This document shows positions 7,583 through 21,261 of a stretch of 52,615 nucleotides of DNA, one piece after another. A model generated the notes under the pieces. It searched no databases. It saw only the letters and a program-made list of their open reading frames with translations, and was not told where the DNA came from. Origin of the DNA: Escherichia phage vB_EcoP_Bp7. The stretch lies in sequence record NC_079181.1, one strand, 5' to 3'. The translations under genes and the position numbers were made by a program. The first letter of the stretch is position 1; each line of letters starts with the position of its first letter.

Positions 7583-7960
7583 ATGGCACAATATTCAGAT
7601 GTAAACACTGGCATCATCGGTCCTAACGGCTTCAAGAAAGACCCAAAACATCCCGACATTCGTGGGCGTATTAACGTTGACGGAATCTGGTATTGGGTAT
7701 CTGGTTGGAACAAGCAAGCAAATGGTAATGAGTTTACCTCACTTGCATTAACCATCATGACTCAGGAACAGGTTGATGAAATGATGCGTAAGCGTGAGGA
7801 GAAAGCTAAAGCCAAAGCTCAACCTCAAGCTGCCGCTCAACAGCAACAGCAACGTCAACAGCCGACTCAGCAGCAACAAACTCAGGCACAACAGCCTCAG
7901 GGAAATTCTGCATACAACCCAAATGAGCCGAAAGACTTCGACGACGACATTCCGTTCTAA
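7583..7960 (+). CDS. small protein with Q-rich linker and SSB-type acidic C-terminal tail (125 aa)
   Basis: C-terminus ...DFDDDIPF matches the E. coli SSB tail; ~70-aa N-terminal domain then a QQQQ-rich linker. Confidence 0.6.
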   Translation: MAQYSDVNTGIIGPNGFKKDPKHPDIRGRINVDGIWYWVSGWNKQANGNEFTSLALTIMTQEQVDEMMRKREEKAKAKAQPQAAAQQQQQRQQPTQQQQTQAQQPQGNSAYNPNEPKDFDDDIPF

Positions 7961-8057
7961 TGGAGATGCCCTATGAAAATTTTATGTTTTATAGGGCTAC
8001 ATAATTGGGAAATTTCACACGAAAACGATTATGTAACCATTTGGGTGTGCAAACACT

Positions 8058-8987
8058 GTGCAGCAATGCGTGAGGAATATCATGGACAATAAGGTTATCG
8101 AAATACCTGCCAACTTGGTTAAAACTGGCGACATTGTATTTCATGATGGTAGAGGGTATCCGATTGTACACATCAACAGACTTAGTGGTGTAGTTCAGCT
8201 ACAATACTCTGGCGGATTCTTTAACTTTGAGTTGGGCCGTATAGTCAGAGTATTGGAAAAACGTCCCACTACAGAATCTTTTACAAAGCCTACCACAACC
8301 CGTGCAGTATTGGCGCATGAAGTACGACCTGGAAACATTTTATCTTACGGAATCAGATTCTTTGAGATAAAGGAAGTTAAAGACCTTGGAGAAATACCTG
8401 AAAATGTGGTTCGATTAACCCATGTAACAGGATACTTTGACTTTTCACCCAACCGCATAGTCCACATTGTTAATACGCCACCAGCACAGGAAACTCCTAC
8501 GGTGAAGTTCGATACTCAAATAAAGCCAGTGTTCCTTCCATATGAGGAAGCGGTGAAACCATTCTCAGATGAAGAGGATGTTCTTGGAAAAGATTTGGAA
8601 GTTGGTGATATTATTTGGGTCAATAATACTTGGGCCACTATAACAAATATGTATAAACATCCAAATTCACCATTTAATAAAGTGAATGTGGACTATGATG
8701 GCGTTAAAGGTTTACAAGTGCGCCTCACATTAACTGGAACATTTTCAAGAAAGGTAAGGGCAGTTATGGAAACATTATATATTCAAAATGCAATCGAAGC
8801 ACAACGTATTCTTCTGCAAAAGCTCGAGCAAATGCTGGAATTAGCGCAGCTCCTACCAACAAAAGATGGCAAGATTGCAATCAGCAACTGCAACATTCGC
8901 GTGGACAAGGCATCAATCACTAAAGCCGCACGCGATGAAATGAAAGTTGCTGCAAGCAAATCCGCAGAACTTATCAAGAAGCTGTAA
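8058..8987 (+). CDS. hypothetical protein with three internal repeats and a C-terminal coiled coil (309 aa)
   Basis: Repeated modules around TGDIVFHDGRGYPIV / PGNILSYGIRFF / VGDIIWVNNTW; alternative ATG at 8082. Confidence 0.55.
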   Translation: MQQCVRNIMDNKVIEIPANLVKTGDIVFHDGRGYPIVHINRLSGVVQLQYSGGFFNFELGRIVRVLEKRPTTESFTKPTTTRAVLAHEVRPGNILSYGIRFFEIKEVKDLGEIPENVVRLTHVTGYFDFSPNRIVHIVNTPPAQETPTVKFDTQIKPVFLPYEEAVKPFSDEEDVLGKDLEVGDIIWVNNTWATITNMYKHPNSPFNKVNVDYDGVKGLQVRLTLTGTFSRKVRAVMETLYIQNAIEAQRILLQKLEQMLELAQLLPTKDGKIAISNCNIRVDKASITKAARDEMKVAASKSAELIKKL

Positions 8988-11107: not shown

Positions 11108-11342
11108 TTTAAATATTGCTGAACTTGAGGCTGGATTGATTGTTCACCACCAGCCTCGAAACACTTTCTATCGTATTCTTGGGCCTACAAAGATTAAAAC
11201 TCACTGCGGAAGTTGGGTGGATGGGTTTGCTTACCAAGAAGTGAAGAAGTACGGGGACCATACTTTCTTGAGTATTGATTCTTCTACTATCTACACACGA
11301 CCGAAAGAGCTGTTTGATTCAGACTGGAAGGTTCTGGGATAG
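11100..11342 (+). CDS. hypothetical protein (80 aa)
   Basis: ORF from the track. Confidence 0.45.
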   Translation: MRDLNIAELEAGLIVHHQPRNTFYRILGPTKIKTHCGSWVDGFAYQEVKKYGDHTFLSIDSSTIYTRPKELFDSDWKVLG

Positions 11343-11410
11343 TTCCAAGCTGTTCCGTCGAAGTGCCAAGCGGGTTTTGTGCTCGCATTGGCCTTCGGCT
11401 TTAGTCTGAA

Positions 11411-11429
11411 ACATTAGTGGGATTTGATT
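11411..11429 (+). promoter_or_regulatory. phage promoter-like motif P4 (acattagtgggatttgatt)
   Basis: Conserved motif, preceded by tctgaa as in P5 and P6. Confidence 0.5.
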
Positions 11430-11551
11430 CGGACCACTTAGGGAAGAAAGGCATTATACACTTATCGCCAAATGGGTGTCAAGCACTTTCTTCATTTATT
11501 TTAACTTATTCTTATTATTCTTTTTGTTTGGAATATTGGAATAATTCTGAA

Positions 11552-11570
11552 ACATTAGTTGGAATTGAAG
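11552..11570 (+). promoter_or_regulatory. phage promoter-like motif P5 (acattagttggaattgaag)
   Basis: Conserved motif; followed at 11590-11660 by a structured element. Confidence 0.55.
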
Positions 11571-11589
11571 AGACAACATCAGATAAGAG

Positions 11590-11660
11590 CTTTGTAACTA
11601 GGTAGTCCGTCTGGTACCAGGGCGTGTGAGAACGTTCGATTCGTTCTACAAAGTTCTTTT
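11590..11660 (+). ncRNA. promoter-proximal structured RNA candidate with a tRNA T-arm-like hairpin
   Basis: CTTTGTA (11590-11596) pairs with TACAAAG (11647-11653); inner GAACG-TTCGATT-CGTTC hairpin and palindrome CTGGTACCAG; followed by TTCTTTTCG. Confidence 0.35.
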
Positions 11661-12204
11661 CGATGGAATGTTTCCATCAAATACATTTATCTTTTAACAT
11701 AGGCCAAAGGGCCGGAATACTTCTTCGCAGAAAGCTGTTCACTTGTTATAGCGATGTATTGGGATGAATTGGTACTAAATAAGCAAGCTGTTAGGGCTGA
11801 ATAATTAGAGGGTTATGCCTCATGCTTATGTTAGTCATTCGAAAATAGGTTTGTGCCACAAGCTGCTGGTGCTCTGAGGAAGTCGGACAAACAGGGCTTA
11901 GAGTGGCATAATCCGCACAAAACCGCGCCACCAGCTATGCCAAAGCGGGTGGATTGGGTGAATGTATTGGGAAGGGTTGCAAAGCCTCTGTGACACGCCT
12001 GAGCCGCAAGGCGACGACACTCATGTGATTAGCGTATCGCACCCTAACGGGAGTAACCCTTCGCCAATGCAGTTATCCAGAATTGACACAAACGGTAGGC
12101 AGTGGCCCGATTTTCGGCCTTCCTGCGCTACCCTGTGGCCTGTTCCTGGGCCAAAAGATGAGAAGAGAAGTCACAAACACTGAATCGAAAATTGGAGAGT
12201 TCCT

Positions 12205-12813: not shown

Positions 12814-13488
12814 ATGTCTTATCATGATGATGACAAAGAGATTGCACTATCAACGTGTAAGCAATGGCTCAATGATAATGATGCCGTCTATCTTGCCAAG
12901 GAAGATGTTATCATTATGTGGGTCCATTTTAATCCAGAATCGAAGCGCGGTGAGTGGCAACGCTACAAGATGAAAGAGGCTTGTCGCATAATTAAAGCCA
13001 CACGCGCTGGCTTCTCTGCTATGAAGTATATTAAGCCAGAGATGCTTATGCTTGCTGCACAGGAAGAAGAACGTGCGTATAAGCAAGCTGTTAAATCTCG
13101 TTCAACTGTTCCTCCAGAGTTCTTTAATTTGGAGCGCGCTGGACACTTCAACAATTTAGAAATGTTGACACTGTGCCTGTTGCAAGAATTAGTTGGAAGA
13201 GGACAAAACATTGAAGCTGTTTGTCTTGGAGAACTCATGAAAGAGTTGTTCTCGGCAAAGGGCTTTGCTGTGCCAAACCGAACTTTACGCTGGAAATTGT
13301 TGCGAGCAGTCGCGCAAGAAGCTGGTGTAGTTGTTCGTGACAGAACAAACCGACTCACTGTAACTGGAGTTGGGCGTTTTGTAGCAATCCAGATTGAGGG
13401 TTATGACGAATCAATCATCACTGAACTCACTGTCGCTGAGACAAAGGATTTAGTAAATAAAACACTAGAACGATTCAATAGATATTGA
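12814..13488 (+). CDS. hypothetical protein (224 aa)
   Basis: ATG at 12814 in frame with the 12757 track ORF, directly after the upstream stop. Confidence 0.55.
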   Translation: MSYHDDDKEIALSTCKQWLNDNDAVYLAKEDVIIMWVHFNPESKRGEWQRYKMKEACRIIKATRAGFSAMKYIKPEMLMLAAQEEERAYKQAVKSRSTVPPEFFNLERAGHFNNLEMLTLCLLQELVGRGQNIEAVCLGELMKELFSAKGFAVPNRTLRWKLLRAVAQEAGVVVRDRTNRLTVTGVGRFVAIQIEGYDESIITELTVAETKDLVNKTLERFNRY

Positions 13489-13517
13489 GTCGTTTGACGA
13501 ATCAGAGCAGTTCTGAA

Positions 13518-13536
13518 ACATTAGTTGGATGTGGAA
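13518..13536 (+). promoter_or_regulatory. phage promoter-like motif P6 (acattagttggatgtggaa)
   Basis: Conserved motif about 75 bp upstream of the 13612 gene. Confidence 0.55.
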
Positions 13537-13611
13537 AGAGAAAGGCTCTTTAATTTTATCTAAGTCACGTCACCGTGGCGTGCAAAACTATTCAATATAA
13601 GGTATATACAA

Positions 13612-13950
13612 ATGGCTAAGATTGTAACCGTAACTCAGTACGAAGCTAACGATGGTTCCCTGTTCCTGACCGAAGCAGAGTGTAATGCACATGACTTCAA
13701 ACTGGAAAACGGTGCTAAAATTGAGAAAGCTGCCGAAGCGTACCTGAACACCGTTGGCGCTATCGACCGTTCTCGCTCCATGCAGAAGAACACCATCGAG
13801 CAGTTCCTGGCATTCTACCTGCCGTGGGTTGAAGCTGGTGAGCCGGAAGTTGAGCGTACTAAGTTCGATACTCCGAAAGAAGCTAAAGTTGCTGACGCAA
13901 GTGTTGCCGAAGCTGCCGAAGCTGCTGTTGAAGAAGCTCCGGTATTCTAA
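13612..13950 (+). CDS. hypothetical protein with acidic C-terminal tail ending in Phe (112 aa)
   Basis: Strong SD (TAAGGT); E. coli-like high-expression codons; C-terminus AEAAEAAVEEAPVF. Confidence 0.65.
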   Translation: MAKIVTVTQYEANDGSLFLTEAECNAHDFKLENGAKIEKAAEAYLNTVGAIDRSRSMQKNTIEQFLAFYLPWVEAGEPEVERTKFDTPKEAKVADASVAEAAEAAVEEAPVF

Positions 13951-14319
13951 GTTGCCGATGGCAGACTTGAGAGACTAAGCTAAATCGATCTGGCATGCAC
14001 TGGAAGTTTTCCGGTGCTGCCTTGAACCCATTCCAGAGTGAGTGGGCTTCAATTTGTACATAATCCAAACACCATTGCATGAGCCTTCGACGGGAGGCAA
14101 TGTTGGGAAATTTGTTGTGTACAAATTGAAGTAGTTTTCTGAGTCTTACGACGGGCCTAAACTGCCTGAAGTTATTGCGACTGTTTTATTCATTTAAAAT
14201 AAATGCAAATGATTCTGAAATGCGAGTTGCGGCTTAATTAAATTTAAGTCTTCTCCGTGGTCTTCCAATCCCACGTAACCAAATTTGGCGCATTGTGGCT
14301 CCGAGATGTGATTAATAAA

Positions 14320-14527
14320 TCGGAGCAATAATTAATTTGTATTCTGCGATGCAATGCAGGCTTAAGTCCCTCAGTGCGCGTGGGGATGTGACAGAGTACA
14401 AACTTAATTATTAATTTGTATTCTGGTGTTGTTCGCCAAGATTGGTGCACTCATGATTGGTAGTGTTGGAGAGCGCGGAGCCTAAAATATTATCTGGCAT
14501 CTCCTACCAGAGTACAAACTTAATTAT
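14320..14527. repeat. cluster of direct and inverted repeats in a non-coding island
   Basis: cagagtacaaacttaatta occurs twice (around 14390 and 14505); aattaatttgtattctg occurs twice; together they form an imperfect palindrome at 14393-14426. Confidence 0.55.
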
Positions 14528-14968
14528 GCAGTTGGATATTTCTAGAGGACGGACGAGCACACTGGAATGTCTTCAATTGGTTTAGTGTGAGAAGCTATGC
14601 CAATATGAAACGTAACTCCTTGGGGAAGTGCTCCTCTGGATTTCCCTCCACACAGGAATCTCAAGCCTGTGGCAGCGACTTCGAAGCTGCACTGCGTAAC
14701 CTAAATTCACCCTAAAGTGAGTTGCCCTGAGTATGGAAATAAACTGCTCATAACCGATGGTATCTACAAAGGTAGATTAAATCAGGTTGCCTGTTGGTAC
14801 TTGGGTTCAACACCTGCTTGCACTCGCAAAGTAGTGCCTCGTACCTGAGATGAAGTGAGTCGGGACCATCAATCCCACGTTATGTCAAAACGCAGTAGGC
14901 GGCTCACAGATTCTACAAGCCTCGCAGTTCGGGAAAACCTGCGTTATCAAAACCCCCTCTTATTCTTT

Positions 14969-15061
14969 GGACGAGTAGCTCAGAAGGTCTGCTCCAGAGC
15001 TTAGTCAGGTAGAGCAATCTGTTAGGCAGATGTGTCGTTGGTTCGAATCCAACCTCGTCCA
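14969..15061 (+). tRNA. atypical 93-nt tRNA-like gene (isotype unresolved, possibly Leu)
   Basis: Perfect 7-bp acceptor stem (GGACGAG / CTCGTCC) and canonical T-arm (GTTGG-TTCGAAT-CCAAC), but about 20 extra nt in the D-arm region; candidate anticodons UAG or CAG depending on the fold. Confidence 0.45.
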
Positions 15062-15093
15062 CCCACTTTAATAACCGCAATACTGGAGTCCTT

Positions 15094-15234
15094 ATGGATT
15101 TTGATGCACTTGATAATTTAGACTTCGGTGCTGCCGAAGAAGCAATTGAAGAACTTAAGAAGAAGCAGGACGAAGAAGCAATCGTTCCTGGTGAGGGCGA
15201 TAACGACTGCTCAAGTGGTGCGTGCGCCATCTAA
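15094..15234 (+). CDS. small acidic protein (46 aa)
   Basis: Hand-translated MDFDALDNLDFGAAEEAIEEL...; GGAG 6 nt upstream. Below the ORF track cutoff. Confidence 0.35.
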   Translation: MDFDALDNLDFGAAEEAIEELKKKQDEEAIVPGEGDNDCSSGACAI

Positions 15235-15242
15235 GGTGATTT

Positions 15243-15479
15243 ATGCAACAGCTTAAATCAATAGTTCTTGGCGTCCTGACTGCATTTGGTATTCTTATTG
15301 CAGTGTTCCTCAAAGGCAAAAGCTCAGGCAAAGCCGAGGAGCGTCAGGAAGCCACAGAGAAGCAACTAGATTCATTAAAAGAATCTATCGAGATTAAATC
15401 GCATGTTCAGAAAGAAGTGTCTAGCAGTTCTGATAGCAATGTCGATAGTGAGTTGCTCTCAAAGTGGGTTCGTAAGTGA
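15243..15479 (+). CDS. i-spanin-like membrane protein (78 aa)
   Basis: N-terminal TM segment IVLGVLTAFGILIAVFL followed by a charged helical region; AGGTGA SD. Confidence 0.45.
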   Translation: MQQLKSIVLGVLTAFGILIAVFLKGKSSGKAEERQEATEKQLDSLKESIEIKSHVQKEVSSSSDSNVDSELLSKWVRK

Positions 15480-15612
15480 TTATTGCTTAATTGCACAACC
15501 AATCTATTTGGATGTTGCAGAAGTGAAAATACTATCACGCGAAACCAAAACACAGATTTTAGTCCACAATGAAACGTGGGCACAAAAGTGTTCGAAACTT
15601 ACCCGACAGTGA
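15403..15612 (+). CDS. o-spanin-like lipoprotein (69 aa), overlapping the previous gene in another frame
   Basis: Lipoprotein signal MFRKKCLAVLIAMSIVSC with lipobox IVSC; overlapped two-frame layout as in Rz/Rz1 pairs. Confidence 0.45.
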   Translation: MFRKKCLAVLIAMSIVSCSQSGFVSDYCLIAQPIYLDVAEVKILSRETKTQILVHNETWAQKCSKLTRQ

Positions 15613-16555
15613 GTGAACAAGACGGACGTCTATAACTTCCCACATGGCCTAGCTAGTTGGTGGTGTAAAAGACTGACCAAGGTGACGACAGCCAAAGTCG
15701 AGGGAGTGCGCGACTTTAAATAACGAGACTCTAGCAACTTGTTGCGATGATGGTGTAAGCCCATGCGTTTGGAAGCAGGACTCCAACTCAAACAAACCTG
15801 CAAGTTGCTCTGGGCATAACAATTAAAATTGCTGCCTCGCATTGAACGCGAGAAAGTTCAGGTAGTCACTTCCTAGAACAGTGGCCGGGAACACACCTAG
15901 ACAAAAGTGCTTGAGAACGTTAGCTCTGTCTTGCCAGCATTAATGGCACGTTGGCCGCGTAAAGGCCACAGCGTCTGACCAACGTATCGGTCGCCAAATT
16001 CAATGGATTCGTAGAGTTAATTAAACCTGCACGATGGGATGGGGATGTAGCATCCGAGGCCGACTGTGTAATTGTGAACTTCGCGTTCACCGAATCCGCC
16101 AAATCCATGGGCTAGTGCAAATGTCAGTCACTAGAAGATGTGTTGCAAAACGTCTTCCATGATGTGCAAAGTGTCAGTCACGTGCCCGCCACTTTACCTC
16201 CAACAGTTATGCCTCTGTTCAAAAGGCTCAAGAGAGCGTCTGGCATACCGTAGCGATACGGCTTAGTTGCGCTGATTGTGTTGTGCAGAAAGAAAGTTCA
16301 GGCTTTCGTTTGGGTTACTCCTCATCCCGAAGTTAGCTGGATTCAAAATCCAGACTATGTTCCTATACACATGAAATATGCAAGTCGAGGGTTCTTAATG
16401 TTCAAACATGATGCGAGCATTAAGCGGGTTTATACTTTTCCCCGATGGTCCCCATAAACAAGGCTGATTCACTTGGGCGGTTCGAATCAAATTTAATAAG
16501 TGTTTTGTAACAGTTCACGTCAGGACACTTACTTAAATTTTAACTGGAGAGAAAC

Positions 16556-16786
16556 ATGAAAACTGCTGAAATTGCCGAAGAGATTTATAAGGCCGTAATA
16601 GCCAACCAAATTACCAGTGAAGTCCTGCACATGGATATTGAAGAAGTTCGCAATGCCTTTGGTGGTTTTGCAATCTTGTCAATTGAAGCTGCGGAAGCAC
16701 TAACAAGCACGTACAATCAACGCGAATATGAAAAGCGTTCTGTACTAAATGCGTCGATGAAAGAAATTCAGGCGTCATTAAAATAA
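16556..16786 (+). CDS. hypothetical protein (76 aa)
   Basis: ORF with GGAGAG upstream. Confidence 0.5.
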   Translation: MKTAEIAEEIYKAVIANQITSEVLHMDIEEVRNAFGGFAILSIEAAEALTSTYNQREYEKRSVLNASMKEIQASLK

Positions 16787-16842
16787 TACCATTATCATGG
16801 TGCGGAGCTAATTAATCTCCCACCATATGAACCGGAGAGCAA

Positions 16843-17493
16843 ATGATTACTGCAACACTCGTTGACCACATGGGCAGCGACCTTACAACTGTTAATGCTG
16901 CACGAGTTTCCTATGGTGCAGAGTCGCATGAAATGTCCTTACGTGACGAGAAGCTGATTGAGTTTCTTGCAAAGCATAAGCACATTACGCCGTTTCGCCA
17001 CGCACAGGTAACATTGCGTTGTAAAGCTCCAATCTTCATTGCACGTCAGCTTGGCAAACATCAAACTGGCTTTAGTTGGAATGAAGTTAGCCGTCGTTAC
17101 AAAGATGGTGAAGCAATCTCGATTGAATGTTTTGTACCAGGTGTAGTATTCGGTCGTCCTGAAAAGTTGATGACTCAGACTGCACAACCGTTGCCACAAG
17201 ATTTTGCTGACGATATTCATTATCGCATGGAAAGCCATAACAAGGCTTGCATCGCAGAGTATGAAACGTTAATTGGTTTGGGGATTGCCCCAGAGCAAGC
17301 TCGCATGGTTCTTCCACAATCCATGATGACTGAATGGATTTGGACTGGCTCACTTTATGGCTGGGCATCTATGTATAATCAACGTTCCTCCGAACATGCG
17401 CAATATGAAGTTCGCTTGTTTGCGGAAGAAGTGAATAAAATCATGTCAGAACTGTTCCCAATTTGTTGGAAGGCTCTGACCAACCAGGAATAA
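16843..17493 (+). CDS. thyX: ThyX-like (flavin-dependent thymidylate synthase family) protein, divergent
   Basis: Matches remembered ThyX sequence (VNAARVSYG, KAPIFIARQ, SRRY), but the canonical RHR motif reads KHQ here. Confidence 0.7.
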   Translation: MITATLVDHMGSDLTTVNAARVSYGAESHEMSLRDEKLIEFLAKHKHITPFRHAQVTLRCKAPIFIARQLGKHQTGFSWNEVSRRYKDGEAISIECFVPGVVFGRPEKLMTQTAQPLPQDFADDIHYRMESHNKACIAEYETLIGLGIAPEQARMVLPQSMMTEWIWTGSLYGWASMYNQRSSEHAQYEVRLFAEEVNKIMSELFPICWKALTNQE

Positions 17494-17497
17494 ATAA

Positions 17498-19261
17498 ATG
17501 AACGTCAAGCAATGTGTGGCTAAGATTAAGCACGATGTACCAGACTGTAAATCCACATCTGGCAAGTCTTTACAGGTTTGGTTGAATGTCGATGAAGCTG
17601 GTAATAAGAACTTCTCTGGTTACTGCTTTGCGTGTGGCGTTCTAGTACCAAATCCTTATGGCAATAATCCAGAGAACATTCCAGAGATTAAAGTCAAAAC
17701 TCCAGAAGAAATTCAGGAAGAAGTTGATGAAATCACTGCTTGTCCTCCGTTTGATTTAACCCATCGCAGCATTGAGCCGGAGTTCTGGAAAGCTGCTGGT
17801 GTCCGACTTCTGTATTCAGAGTATGATGGGAAGACTCCAAATGCTCTGGCGCATGGCTACACCAAAAATGGTAAACTTGTTCGTTGGAAGATTAAACTTC
17901 TGAACAAGAAAGTCATGTGGTCAGTTGGCGACACCCAGGGTAACGACCCTTACAACTGGATGGCTGCAAAAGCAATTGGCGGTAAGACACTGTTCATCAC
18001 AGAAGGTGAAGAAGACTGTATCGCATTGCGTCAAATCCTCAAAACTATGAACCGTGGTGGTGCATACGAAGATTTGGATTTTGCTGTAATTAGTTTGAGT
18101 GACGGGAGTGATTCCGTACACAAATGTTTGTCACCAGTTGCAGAAGAAATTAAGCAACGTTGGGAGCAGGTTGTTATCGTATTTGATGATGATGAACCTG
18201 GACGTAAAGCTGCAAAAGAAGCGTGTCGATTGTTGCCTGGTGCAATGATTGCAACACTTCCAGCTAACGATGCCAACGACTGTTTGAAGCGTGGCTTGCT
18301 CAAAGCTACTCAATCTGCTGTTGTATTCCGTGCTGCTCGTCCTCTACCTACAGCACTTGTCAACAAAGAACTTCTTATGGAAGAACTTGATGATGAGGTT
18401 GAACAGGGTGTGGATTATCCTTGGCCCAAGTTAACCGACTTAATGTTTGGTCAACGTCGAGCCGAAGTTATCACAATCGGTGGTGCAGAAGGTGGTGGTA
18501 AAACTACGCTGTCCCGTCAGATTGTGCATCACAACATTACCAAGCATGATTGGGGAGTGTTTACTGCATACATGGAGGAAACTCCTACAGAAACATTGCG
18601 CCGAATGGCTGGCCTCAATGACAACTTGCCATATTGGGAACCTGCGTTTACTCGTGAAGACCCTCGATATGATGAAGCTAAGTTCCGTCAAACTGCTGCG
18701 AAGATGCTTCGTAACATGGAGATTTGGGACCGCAAGCAAGCTGGAGAAGACCCTTATGAAACTTGGGATGGGTTAAAGACGATTCTTCGTCAGATTGGTC
18801 CAGACATTGATATGTTTGTTCTCGATAACTTAACCTACTTATCGGAAGGGATTTCTGCGTCAGAGAAGAACGACTTTCTGGGCAAGCTGTATGCAGACAT
18901 TACAAAGTTAGCAGACCAGTACCAGTTCCACGTTAATATCCTGTCGCACCTTAACCCTGTTGCAAAAGGTCAGCGACCTCATGAAGATGGTGGACGTATT
19001 AAGAAGTCAGACTTTACTGGCTCCCGTGCTGCTGCCAAATATTCTCATGGTATGTTTGGCTTTGAGCGTAATAGCCAGGCAGTTGACCCAAACTGTTCTA
19101 TCATTCGTTCCATTAAGGCTCGTAAGAGTGGTAAAACAGAAGGCTTCAAGACATATTACGACACCGAATCTGGTCGAATCATTCAACGTTCTTGGGATGA
19201 CTCGCTGTTCGAAACCAAAGAGATTGTTCAACTCACCAGGAAGAACGGTCCACACCAATAA
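17498..19261 (+). CDS. T7 gp4-like primase-helicase
   Basis: N-terminal zinc motif (CKS...CFACG), TOPRIM-like FITEGEEDCIALRQ, Walker A GGAEGGGKTT. Confidence 0.85.
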   Translation: MNVKQCVAKIKHDVPDCKSTSGKSLQVWLNVDEAGNKNFSGYCFACGVLVPNPYGNNPENIPEIKVKTPEEIQEEVDEITACPPFDLTHRSIEPEFWKAAGVRLLYSEYDGKTPNALAHGYTKNGKLVRWKIKLLNKKVMWSVGDTQGNDPYNWMAAKAIGGKTLFITEGEEDCIALRQILKTMNRGGAYEDLDFAVISLSDGSDSVHKCLSPVAEEIKQRWEQVVIVFDDDEPGRKAAKEACRLLPGAMIATLPANDANDCLKRGLLKATQSAVVFRAARPLPTALVNKELLMEELDDEVEQGVDYPWPKLTDLMFGQRRAEVITIGGAEGGGKTTLSRQIVHHNITKHDWGVFTAYMEETPTETLRRMAGLNDNLPYWEPAFTREDPRYDEAKFRQTAAKMLRNMEIWDRKQAGEDPYETWDGLKTILRQIGPDIDMFVLDNLTYLSEGISASEKNDFLGKLYADITKLADQYQFHVNILSHLNPVAKGQRPHEDGGRIKKSDFTGSRAAAKYSHGMFGFERNSQAVDPNCSIIRSIKARKSGKTEGFKTYYDTESGRIIQRSWDDSLFETKEIVQLTRKNGPHQ

Positions 19262-19326: not shown

Positions 19327-21261
19327 GTGTTGTATCCTTGGGAAAATATGTATGCCAGTGACATTGAAACAACTGGCCTGTTGGAGCAAATGCGCAAGCA
19401 AGCTGCACCACGTCTTCACAACATTGGATATATTGATGTTCTGACTCGTGAAGAAACTGTAATAGAATGGACCGACAGAAAGTCTATCCAGGCATTTCTG
19501 GATACAGGCCCGACACTAATCATGCACAACGGCGCAACCTTTGACTTTGAAGCACTGAGGTTCCTTGGTTACGACGTTTCAAAGTGTACACTGATTGATA
19601 CTTTGTTTATCAGTTGGTATCTGCAACCTCGTCGTGTTAAGCACGGCTTAGAAGGTTACGGTGAAGAGTTTGGTGTGCCAAAACCAGTCATTGAAGATTG
19701 GGAAAATCAAACTCAAGAAGAATACAACCATCGTGTGATGGAAGACTGCAAGATTCAGTTGAAGCTGTGGGAACAGCAATACATTCAACTCTTGAAGATT
19801 TATAAATCTCCTAGCGAAGTTAAGCGCTTCGTTGAATACCTGATGACAAAAGCTCGTCAGCAAGTTATTCAGCAACGCACTCGCTGGAAGCTGAACATTG
19901 AGAAGGCATTGGCATTTAAGGCCAAGCTGGAGCCAATGATTAAAGAGAAGACGGACGCATTGGAAGCATCAATGCCTCGTGTTCCAGAATATGTTATCAA
20001 AACCCGTCCAGCTAAATGCCACAAGATGAACGGGCAACTGTCTGCCACTGGAATTAAGTGGAAGGCTATTTGTGATGCGAACGGTTTGGACTGGAAAGAC
20101 CCAGACCTGGCTATCAAAGTTCTTAAAGGCTATAAGAAGCCTAATGCTGGTTCACATGTTCAAATCAAAGACTGGTTATTCAGTCTTGGTTGGGAGCCAG
20201 AAACTTTTAAATTTGACCGCAACAAGGAAACAGGTGAAACTCGCCAGATTCCACAAATCACTGTGAAGGATGAAGATGGCAATCCTGAAATATGTCCGAG
20301 CTTGCATAAGTTGGCGGAAAGAAACCCCGACTCTGGTATTCAACATCTTATTGGGATGGGCGTGTATAAACACCGTCTGTCTGTTGTTAATGGCTTCCTT
20401 CGCGACGTCGATGAGGATGGGTTCCTTACTGCACGATGTGGTGGCCTTACCAATACTTTACGCCTTAAACATCGCGAACTTGTTAACCTCCCTTCTATTC
20501 GTGTATTTGGCGGTGAAGAACTGCGTTCAATGCTGGAAGCGTGGCGTGAAGACTACGAACAGTTAGGCTCTGACTTGTGCTCTCTGGAAGACCGTTGTAA
20601 ACACCACTTCCAGTGGATGTATGACCCTGAGTACGTTAAGAAGCAGTTGGCACCAGACTATGATGCTCACCTTGCAATCGGCGTAATTGGCGGATTTATT
20701 ACAGAACAAGAATCTCAGGACCACAAGGACGGAATTAAGAAGTGTAAACAACGTCCAATGTTTAAGACCACGAACTATGCTTGTCAGTATGGTGCTGGTG
20801 TACCGACTGTAGCTCGTTCTGCTGGCTGTGACCAGACTACTGCTGCACGACTGCATAAAGCATATTGGGACTTGAACTGGTCTATTAAAGAGATTGCTGC
20901 AAACACTAAAGTTATCACAGTTGATGGTCAGATGTGGCAACAGAATCCAGTAAACAAATTCTGGTATTCGCTGCGTACAGAGAAAGACCGATTCTCCACA
21001 TTGTGTCAGGGTACTGGTGCATATGTGTTTGATGTATGGTGTAACAACATTATTGCAATTTGCAACGAACGTTGGGGCTGTGACCCGCTTCTGTCTGGAC
21101 AATTCCACGATGAATTGATTCTCCAGGTTAAGAAAGGCTTCCGTGATTTGTGGACGGACTTGCTTAATGAGGCAATGGACCGAACCAACAAAGAACTTAA
21201 ACTTAACCGTGATTGTGCATGTGATGTACAATTTGGCGATAACTACGCAGAGATTCACTAA
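19327..21261 (+). CDS. family A DNA polymerase with 3'-5' exonuclease domain
   Basis: Exo I DIETTGL; motif B RPMFKTTNYACQYGAG; motif C FHDELIL. GTG at 19327 with GGAG 7 nt upstream; alternative ATG at 19348. Confidence 0.9.
   Translation: MLYPWENMYASDIETTGLLEQMRKQAAPRLHNIGYIDVLTREETVIEWTDRKSIQAFLDTGPTLIMHNGATFDFEALRFLGYDVSKCTLIDTLFISWYLQPRRVKHGLEGYGEEFGVPKPVIEDWENQTQEEYNHRVMEDCKIQLKLWEQQYIQLLKIYKSPSEVKRFVEYLMTKARQQVIQQRTRWKLNIEKALAFKAKLEPMIKEKTDALEASMPRVPEYVIKTRPAKCHKMNGQLSATGIKWKAICDANGLDWKDPDLAIKVLKGYKKPNAGSHVQIKDWLFSLGWEPETFKFDRNKETGETRQIPQITVKDEDGNPEICPSLHKLAERNPDSGIQHLIGMGVYKHRLSVVNGFLRDVDEDGFLTARCGGLTNTLRLKHRELVNLPSIRVFGGEELRSMLEAWREDYEQLGSDLCSLEDRCKHHFQWMYDPEYVKKQLAPDYDAHLAIGVIGGFITEQESQDHKDGIKKCKQRPMFKTTNYACQYGAGVPTVARSAGCDQTTAARLHKAYWDLNWSIKEIAANTKVITVDGQMWQQNPVNKFWYSLRTEKDRFSTLCQGTGAYVFDVWCNNIIAICNERWGCDPLLSGQFHDELILQVKKGFRDLWTDLLNEAMDRTNKELKLNRDCACDVQFGDNYAEIH

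Follow-up and report, generated by a model that had tools for sequence, protein, structure and literature searches.

What does a phage carry in nearly a kilobase of DNA that encodes no recognizable protein? In the 52,615-nucleotide (nt) sequence of Escherichia phage vB_EcoP_Bp7 (record NC_079181.1; the whole stretch analysed, hereafter the window), positions 15613-16555 form such an island, in which an original prediction made from the letters alone had seen no credible open reading frame (ORF), repeated short boxes and hairpins. We find that the island is non-coding and conserved, that its + strand folds into helices maintained by compensatory changes, that it is modular, that it is associated with transfer RNA (tRNA) genes in relatives, and that it matches no known RNA family. 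We have high confidence that the island is under selection for RNA structure in its + strand. We propose, with a probability of roughly 60%, that it is a + strand locus for structured non-coding RNA, a string of folded domains that is cut from a phage-polymerase transcript, is stable and acts in trans. The narrower claim that the product is a stable trans-acting RNA is more tentative, and taken on its own falls somewhat short of an even bet.

The case begins with the ~300-nt 3′ domain, module f (16202-16501; like all RNA features below, on the + strand), which contains about ten helices and two pseudoknot-type interactions with compensatory changes. Helix H1 (16202-16219, AACAG/CUGUU) opens the domain, and its loop forms a pseudoknot with the segment just downstream (16211-16214 / 16224-16227, GCCU/AGGC). 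A long-range helix (16243-16247 / 16377-16381, GCAUA/UAUGC) encloses H3 (16248-16261, CCGUA-GCGA-UACGG), the variable hairpins H5 (16293-16310) and H7 (16337-16353), and H6 (16309-16331, UUUGGG/CCCGAA), which presents a conserved loop, YUCCUC. H8 (16394-16424), H9 (16425-16444, CGGG/CCCG) and H10 (16466-16488, GAUUC/GAAUC) follow. Invariant boxes of the module include UCUGGCAUA, UGAAAUAUGCAAG and GCGGGUU, and some boxes are invariant across phages of E. coli, Erwinia, Yersinia and Aeromonas. A profile search (nhmmer) found module f in every locus with the same gene neighbourhood, 53 instances of which 41 are unique; Aeromonas phage phiA050 and contigs from metagenomes are among them. The search of 70 unrelated phage loci that encode ThyX gave no match.

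To measure pairing we wrote down nine of these helices, including the pseudoknot and the long-range helix (46 pairs), using alignment A2 (40 sequences, plain MAFFT). Standard pairs fill 91.7% of the cells, a share that drops to 26-44% once the 3′ partners have been slid one to three columns. Changes on both sides of a pair occur at 27 of the 46 pairs and in 112 cells, versus 9-17 pairs and 19-43 cells in the slid controls, and none of 500 shuffles reaches these values; the slid controls keep the relatedness of the sequences and are the fairer comparison, since among related sequences the cell counts run higher than the tally of truly independent changes. Individual helices illustrate the pattern. 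H1 appears as AACAG/CUGUU, GUGG/CCAC, CUGG/CCAG, AUAG/CUAU or AGAG/CUCU; its loop pseudoknot as GCCU/AGGC, UGCGU/ACGCA, UUCUU/AAGAA, UGCAU/AUGCA or UACGU/ACGUA; the long-range helix becomes GUAUA/UAUAC in four sequences; and H6 runs through an evolutionary series from GGG/CCC by way of GGG/CUC to GAG/CUC. When homologous segments are folded one by one, hairpins form at the same sites with unrelated stems.

The tolerated mismatches identify the strand and the molecule. Among the module f helices G.U occupies 78 cells and A.C 18, and a single U.G pair persists across 31 sequences; since G.U is tolerated over A.C, the selected structure lies in the + strand RNA. The fold of the whole region agrees in direction, with a z-score of -1.77 for the + strand versus -0.02 for the - strand (20 shuffles). 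This bears directly on the idea that the island is an element of the DNA itself, a replication origin, packaging site or recombination site beside the replication genes, as its position directly 5′ of the primase-helicase and polymerase block and its many inverted repeats might suggest. Pairing that accepts G.U and not A.C points instead to RNA from one strand. Moreover, a T7-type origin combines a promoter with an AT-rich stretch, whereas the island has no phage promoter and a guanine-plus-cytosine (GC) content of 46%; a better candidate for a T7-style origin is the stretch 11342-11962 with its promoters at 11409 and 11550, and records of the GJ1 type place the genome ends elsewhere. We therefore give a DNA-level element extremely little weight.

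Comparison with relatives also confirms that the island does not encode protein. Across 22 aligned close relatives, diversity at the three codon positions of ThyX is 0.30/0.07/0.05, and the spanin genes and the 76-amino-acid (aa) gene that follows the island are clearly periodic too, whereas nowhere in 15613-16555 do substitutions show a three-nucleotide periodicity comparable to that of the genes. The three longest ORFs of the island are intact in 5, 4 and 12 of the 22 relatives, versus 21 of 22 for the 76-aa gene, and none has a match in PHROGs. Two stretches of the island, 15903-15992 and 16203-16555, are less variable than ThyX among these relatives. Some automatic annotations nonetheless place several very small genes here, coding for ‘hypothetical proteins’ of 35-70 aa (gp39 of Mangalitsa, ORF038-040 of PYps3T and six ORFs in 2KOFFS). 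The missing periodicity, ORFs that are broken in most relatives, insertions and deletions that are not multiples of three, the want of any PHROG family match and the curated SA91KD and GJ1 annotations, which have no genes there, leave next to no chance that these are genuine. Together with a neighbouring island, the region makes up about 4% of these genomes that is without genes and that annotation pipelines either leave blank or fill with spurious small ORFs.

Relatives of the window also carry the island at the same place. By blastn against GenBank phages and comparison with annotated relatives, the window belongs to a phiEcoM-GJ1-like phage in Carltongylesvirus, a genus of the Chaseviridae (subfamily Cleopatravirinae). 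With 15480-16555 as the query, 64 phage records match, 35 of them over at least 80% of the query; the best match is Escherichia phage vB_EcoM_SA91KD (98.8%), and phiEcoM-GJ1 is 90% identical. The homologues are syntenic across all 64 records, most of which have no annotated feature there, and the curated SA91KD and GJ1 annotations leave the island blank. In Faunus and in Loessnervirus phages (Aioli, Fifi44, Berlingot) the equivalent gap is 1.0-1.5 kb long and likewise without genes. The original prediction had staked itself on a region that does not code for protein and is present and structured in relatives, and this is what we observe: the island is not coding, and in relatives it is conserved and rich in hairpins, neither absent nor unstructured.

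A metagenome scan gave 21 matches to the signature of the 3′ domain, of which seven are real, all of them Chaseviridae-looking, and in a genome collection the signature recovered only a 22-mer, in a metagenome-assembled genome (MAG) of Ignavibacteria. This 22-mer, TGAAATATRCAAGNC(N)AGGGTT, turns up with nothing else of the 3′ domain in three contigs from that one MAG (PMJR01) and in several fen and peat metagenome contigs (L122, L126, L130, L132, L134, L136, L137, L139 and L140 carry it alone), where it is probably an unrelated repeat.

The individual boxes and hairpins that first drew attention to the island are all present, within a few bases of the positions given for them. The 11-nt box gaaagttcagg occurs at 15852-15862 and 16292-16302 as part of a 12-mer, AGAAAGTTCAGG, at 15851 and 16291; agtcgaggg lies at 15696-15704 and 16383-16391 (previously placed at 15704 and 16385); and tgtcagtcac, at 16122-16131 and 16172-16181, flanks a hairpin, GAAGA...TCTTC. 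The TTGGA...TCCAA and CTGGA-TTCAAAA-TCCAG (16337-16353) hairpins are there as well. Measured against 300 shuffles that preserve dinucleotides, exact 10-mer repeats show a modest excess (5 versus 0.53 expected, p ~0.007), these representing only three independent words, and 5-nt inverted repeats within 30 nt are about doubled (49 versus 25 expected). Repeated boxes do not organize the island, however: the copy GAAAGTTCAGG in the 3′ domain sits in a hairpin whose sequence differs across genera, and the short repeats appear mostly incidental. The long-range inverted repeat of the original prediction exists, with 9 rather than 8 bp and with its first arm misplaced by 2 (AGCAACTTG/CAAGTTGCT, 15733-15741 / 15801-15809), and fails as a real pairing. 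Its arms belong to two separate local hairpins with their own compensatory changes, GCAA-CUUG-UUGC (15734-15745) of module a and AGUUG/CAAUU (15803-15824) of module b, and the DNA between them is inserted or deleted in relatives; the repeat is thus coincidental. We likewise discarded the inverted repeats I1 (15758-15772 / 16099-16113), I4 and I5, whose arms lie in local hairpins or in independently lost cassettes. The hairpin at 16337-16353 that had looked like a tRNA T arm is H7, the variable stem-loop of the 3′ domain, which has another sequence in other genera and is absent from the relative L008. Finally, the island is GC-richer than its surroundings only marginally (46.4% versus 44.2% for the window, with flanks of 45.2% and 43.1% and a local maximum of 49%).

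Upstream of module f, the alignment map shows that the island is a mosaic of cassettes of ~50-225 nt whose presence differs among close relatives, and in distant genera only patches align, in changed order. In 4HA13, Faunus, IMGVR8 and IMGVR10, the counterpart of 15805-15838 precedes that of 15651-15737, which places module b before module a, and in Berlingot 16095-16191 comes first, followed by 15989-16032 and 15692-15728. The island also contains internal paralogues: 15673-15705 resembles 15975-16007 (73%) and 15794-15817 resembles 16023-16046 (75%). The 5′ cassettes can exist without the 3′ domain, as seen in a 51.8-kb viral contig (IMGVR_UViG_2816332609_000005, our L144), where module b is followed by a and then c (7670-8100) and module f is missing; downstream of them lie ~0.9 kb of AT-rich non-coding DNA and then different genes.

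Several of these cassettes have their own record of compensatory change, which in modules a and b, as in module f, greatly exceeds the controls. Module a (15694-15745; alignment A3, 27 sequences) is an H-type pseudoknot followed by a hairpin. Its stem P1 pairs AAAGUCG with CGACUUU (15694-15700 / 15711-15717), the loop segment GGAGU (15703-15707) pairs with ACUCU (15728-15732) past an invariant linker, UUAAAUAACGAG, and the 3′ hairpin GCAA-CUUG-UUGC covaries strongly. Paired cells amount to 88.8% (31-46% with the partners slid) and compensatory cells to 29 (1-6 when slid), and three of the five pairs of the pseudoknot helix have changed on both sides, for example to UGAAU/AUUCA. In Erwinia phages module a is 95-97% identical to the window's copy, while their ThyX protein is only ~70% identical. 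Module b (15801-15852; alignment A4, 20 sequences) has a hairpin, AGUUG/CAAUU (15803-15807 / 15820-15824), with an invariant 12-nt loop, CUCUGGGCAUAA, and a stem that covaries (GGUG/CACC, AGUG/CACU), and a 3′ hairpin, CUCGC-AUUGAA-GCGAG. Its loop segment GGGCA (15812-15816) could pair with UGCCU (15833-15837), partners that are invariant and hence give no covariation signal. Between modules a and b lies a variable spacer (15746-15800), partly inserted or deleted in relatives, with the hairpins AUGG...CCAU and UUGGA-AGCAGGAC-UCCAA.

Module c (15853-15965), which nhmmer matches in 22 distinct relatives, forms several hairpins: GUCAC-UUCCUAGAACA-GUGGC with a conserved 11-nt loop, UGAG/CUCU, UGCCA-GCAUUAA-UGGCA and GGCC-GCGUAAA-GGCC. 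Compensatory variants of this module are visible by eye across genera (GACUUC/GAACGUC, GGG/CCC, UGUCA/UGACA). Module d (15966-16094) is, by repeat search and nhmmer, in part a paralogue of modules a and b and has a putative hairpin, GUGAAC-UUCGC-GUUCAC. Module e (16095-16200) is an optional cassette in which a direct repeat, GUGCAAA(G)UGUCAGUCAC, surrounds a putative hairpin, GAAGA.../...UCUUC, and which ends in GCCCGCCA; it is missing from about half of the close relatives and lies elsewhere within the islands of Berlingot and L110.

Such a mosaic could also be a graveyard, a former cluster of tRNAs and small genes shuffled by homing-endonuclease-driven recombination and now functionless, and the tRNAs of relatives are relevant here. 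Rfam models and ARAGORN, applied to the loci of relatives, identify a tRNA-Cys(GCA) within the homologous island in two of them: in L008 it falls after module c and before the 3′ domain, and in L110 it lies 90 nt 5′ of the 3′ domain. L009, Fifi44, Berlingot and L107 instead have a tRNA-like element, scoring 30-38 bits, 11-15 nt upstream of the 3′ domain (L009 4176-4251, L102 4170-4236, L103 4626-4700 and L107 1284-1359, in Loessnervirus-type phages). Its acceptor stem is full, its T arm perfect and its anticodon arm shortened; it aligns with the tRNA-Cys of L008 and L110 and could be either a decaying tRNA or a processing handle. The idea that the island is the remnant of a tRNA cluster is thus borne out to the extent that relatives have a tRNA-Cys or tRNA-like element in the homologous island; the window's own island holds neither a tRNA nor a detectable remnant, ARAGORN calling no tRNA or transfer-messenger RNA (tmRNA) in the window and Rfam tRNA models giving no signal in 15600-16560 even at E<=10. 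A graveyard would account for the mosaic, for the HNH endonuclease genes found where the island begins (DE15, 2KOFFS) or close to it (other relatives), for the poor scores of some tRNA-like elements, and for a pseudo-tRNA in the neighbouring island. It sits badly with compensatory changes that keep helices across genera, with boxes that stay invariant in phages of four host groups (E. coli, Erwinia, Yersinia, Aeromonas), with diversity below that of ThyX among close relatives, and with the missing tRNA signal in the island itself, and we regard it as very improbable.

The neighbouring, gene-poor island (13950-15243) has features of its own. A degenerate tRNA at 14998-15063, the only place with even a weak tRNA match (14998-15053), scores 27 bits in Rfam against a gathering score of 29 and is not called by ARAGORN; it corresponds to the second tRNA of this phage family, annotated as tRNA-Arg in GJ1 and Pel53, the ST32 paper likewise reports a tRNA-Arg there, and ARAGORN reads the 95-nt GJ1/ST32 copy as tRNA-Leu(CAG). 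The only matches to tmRNA models, all weak, also fall in this island, at 14044-14292 (E 0.24-0.35, 15-21 bits against gathering scores of 47-50). A stretch of ~130 nt, 14196-14324, resembles unannotated DNA in Klebsiella plasmids of ~112 kb (CP037443.1, NZ_CP103584.1, CP056499.1; 74.6%, E=5e-12); it may represent a further non-coding element common to both, and these plasmids are possibly phage-plasmids.

How might the island act? We see it as a string of separately folding domains in which accessory 5′ cassettes, several of them H-type pseudoknots, are gained, lost and reordered before a constant, pseudoknotted 3′ domain. A scan with the four promoter sequences annotated in GJ1 places phage-polymerase promoters on the + strand at 2265, 7100, 7489, 11409, 11550, 13184, 13516, 21484, 41022 and 52530, and none between 13536 and 21483. 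Sites resembling sigma-70 promoters are depleted in 13400-17000 (one, at 16757-16784 and outside the island, versus 5.5 expected), and the sigma-70 and terminator scan gave nothing notable. Since both kinds of promoter are lacking, the island is probably read within a transcript that starts at 13516. The RNA would then be cut from this long transcript by tRNA-processing enzymes, at a terminal hairpin, or both; we propose excision because, in related genera, the 3′ domain is immediately preceded by a tRNA-Cys or a tRNA-like element. The long terminal hairpin (16489-16545, AUUUAAUAAGUGU.../...ACACUUACUUAAAU, from the minimum-free-energy fold and the alignment), whose loop carries a 44-nt insertion in GJ1-type relatives, abuts the ribosome-binding site of the next gene and is a candidate processing site. 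The released RNA or RNAs would persist as one or more stable species that work in trans through contacts with proteins or with the translation apparatus, much as the large phage RNAs GOLLD and ROOL, or the stable RNAs C and D beside the tRNA genes of phage T4, are presumed to do. Among the promoters listed, the tandem pair at 11409 and 11550 lies in a gap without genes (11342-11962) that has the lowest GC content nearby (0.37) and a layout like that of the T7 primary origin.

A number of points weigh against this proposal. Transcription, ends, processing and stability are all deduced, action in trans is a supposition, and the modules may yield more than one RNA. The z-score for the fold of the whole region is modest. 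The ~40 aligned sequences come from one phage family, and many of their compensatory cells are inherited rather than independent. In distant genera module f is no better conserved than ThyX (nucleotide identity 56-73% versus 68-73%). The window's own island has no tRNA, and module f is invariably found 55-130 nt ahead of the next gene, a position that would also suit a role in cis.

That last point belongs to the main rival: the island could be a cis-acting leader of the messenger RNA for the small gene, ThyX, primase-helicase and DNA polymerase, controlling its translation, processing or decay, possibly through the anti-Shine-Dalgarno-like CUCCUC loop, through pseudoknots that sense a ligand or protein, or through structures that block exonucleases. 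The 3′ domain is always the last module, in all genera a small gene of one family lies downstream of it, the conserved YUCCUC loop of H6 is complementary to ribosome-binding sites of the GGAG type, the long hairpin adjoins the ribosome-binding site of the next gene, and the island has no promoter of its own. Yet 0.9 kb far exceeds known bacterial leaders, and the 5′ cassettes differ in presence and order while the downstream genes stay the same. Berlingot, in addition, has an extra gene of 196 aa between the 3′ domain and the small gene, L144 combines modules a-c with other downstream genes and no 3′ domain, tRNA genes are embedded in the islands of relatives, and no riboswitch or leader family in Rfam matches. 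We consider a leader unlikely on balance, while granting it a sizeable minority of the probability, and favour the trans-acting RNA locus.

Annotated relatives show which genes surround the island. On its 5′ side lie the genes for i-spanin (15243-15479) and o-spanin (15403-15612); on its 3′ side come the 76-aa protein (16556-16786, + strand; phrog_32967, no Pfam match), ThyX (16843-17493), a T7-like primase-helicase (17498-19261) and DNA polymerase (19327-21261). A family of small, acidic, helical proteins (motif FADAFMRERYER in other genera) always stands between the RNA island and ThyX. The 76-aa version in the window is too diverged for BLAST to connect it with the related small genes (L099 4566-4904, L101 4718-4963, L012 4720-4989), yet has REYEKRSV in common with them. 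Free-standing HNH homing-endonuclease genes occupy the start of the island and clip the end of o-spanin in DE15 (L084 3121-3567) and 2KOFFS (L085 787-1233), and elsewhere lie between the 76-aa gene and ThyX (SA91KD, L083 4401-4853; Pel53, L088 4389-4841); given these genes at or near them, the island borders appear to be insertion hot spots.

Searches for known families gave no relative. A comparison with Rfam had been advised at the outset; run with the Rfam 15 covariance models, which include riboswitches, ribozymes, leaders, small RNAs, tmRNA, RNase P and group I and II introns, it gave no match in the island at the gathering score and only three chance-level matches at E<=10 (E 1.4-3.8). 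On 16 relatives' loci the models found nothing in the island except tRNAs. The models for GOLLD (RF01998) and ROOL (RF03087), two large ‘ornate’ RNAs of phages and prophages, match neither the window nor these 16 loci at the gathering score, nor the island at E<=10. A blastn search of E. coli genomes found no match that would point to recent capture from the host, and a likeness of UUCCCCG...AUAAAC to type I-E CRISPR repeats was set aside, its helix having the wrong polarity and the repeat falling on the other strand. The literature on Chaseviridae, phiEcoM-GJ1, ST32 and 4HA13 that we searched does not mention the region, the GJ1 genome paper and a catalogue from 2023 that lists 10,006 candidate viral RNAs not being covered. 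The island RNA is therefore apparently undescribed.

One cassette does resemble a known RNA. Near the 5′ end of the island, a variable cassette (15639-15692; AGCUAG-UUGGUGGUGUAAAAGACUGACCAA-GGUGACGA, closed by UGGC/GCCA) is similar to helix 11 (h11) of 16S ribosomal RNA (rRNA). A blastn search of 7.3 Gb of plasmid sequence returned three matches only (E = 6e-3), all to the same 39 nt (15650-15688) and all inside 16S genes, as Rfam confirmed. The cassette is identical to the 16S rRNA of Cupriavidus and Allocoleopsis at 35 of 39 positions and, across 51 nt, matches nt 233-282 of E. coli 16S (helix 11) with 76% identity, and a profile of eight phage copies matches rRNA with E = 4e-10, in a small 6-kb database. 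It shares the pattern AGCUAG ... GGUGGNGUAA ... ACC ... GGYGACGA (15639-15688), and its inner stem covaries as h11 does in bacteria (UUGGU/ACCAA, ACGGU/ACCGU, AUGGU/ACCAU). The two differ in that only ~50 nt are similar and the cassette is found in only some relatives; in that the basal helix AGCUAG/CUAGCU has lost its partner CUAGCU and is replaced by a closure of the UGGC/GCCA type; and in a mismatch at one pair of the stem (CUGACC in place of CUCACC). We consider the similarity real and beyond chance, whatever its meaning. Modules a, b, c and f show no significant likeness to E. coli 16S, 23S or 5S rRNA, and a possible counterpart of 16S nt 46-66, ACACAUG..GCAAGUCGAGGG, needs a 7-nt gap, was missed by the profile search and is treated as chance.

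In the ribosome, helix 11 interacts with ribosomal protein uS17 (S17) (PMC4604426), and if the cassette is functional it would be a phage RNA imitating the binding site of a ribosomal protein. This invites a bolder reading: that the island represents a new class of large modular phage RNA, functionally akin to GOLLD and ROOL and unrelated to them in sequence, which acts on the host translation apparatus, with the helix-11-like cassette as a decoy or dock for uS17 or 30S assembly intermediates and the CUCCUC loop mimicking the anti-Shine-Dalgarno end of 16S rRNA. We regard this as a long shot. If it were true, the culturable carriers phiEcoM-GJ1, ST32 and Mangalitsa would allow the function to be dissected genetically in E. 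coli.

Of the smaller known systems, two offer partial parallels. The preQ1-I riboswitch aptamers and the operator of T4 gene 32 are H-type pseudoknots with A-rich linkers, and the same topology recurs in modules a and b and where module f begins: a short stem with an 8-12-nt loop, then a linker rich in A and a 3′ segment complementary to the loop. Unlike those elements, the modules match no Rfam family and have invariant loops and linkers of their own (UUAAAUAACGAG, CUCUGGGCAUAA). The stable RNAs C and D of phage T4, single units of ~120-140 nt that are co-transcribed and co-processed with the T4 tRNA cluster, provide a precedent, by description, for stable small RNAs made together with phage tRNAs in a virulent coliphage, whereas the island here is a string of modules and, in the window, has no tRNA of its own.

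The closest parallel in layout is with GOLLD and ROOL, which are encoded in phages and prophages, often close to tRNA islands (PMC12286853). Like them, the island is phage-encoded and several hundred nucleotides long, contains many helices and pseudoknots, and is associated with tRNAs in relatives. In GOLLD the 3′ region is universally conserved and the 5′ region less so, and tRNAs sometimes lie in the linker (PMC12286853); in layout only, the island matches this, with module f in all 53 loci that share this gene neighbourhood, 5′ cassettes that vary and a tRNA sometimes between them. Since it matches neither family's covariance model, the island RNA is not a member of either, and it differs further in its hosts, virulent Chaseviridae of Enterobacteria and Aeromonas, in a 5′ part made of shuffled cassettes, and in possibly giving rise to several RNAs. 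Large structured phage RNAs such as GOLLD and ROOL have been puzzling for a long time, with structures that are now known and functions that are not, and they occur naturally in hosts that are hard to handle; a locus of similar layout, carried by small virulent phages (52 kb) of E. coli, Yersinia and Erwinia, lends itself readily to deletion, swap and pull-down experiments.

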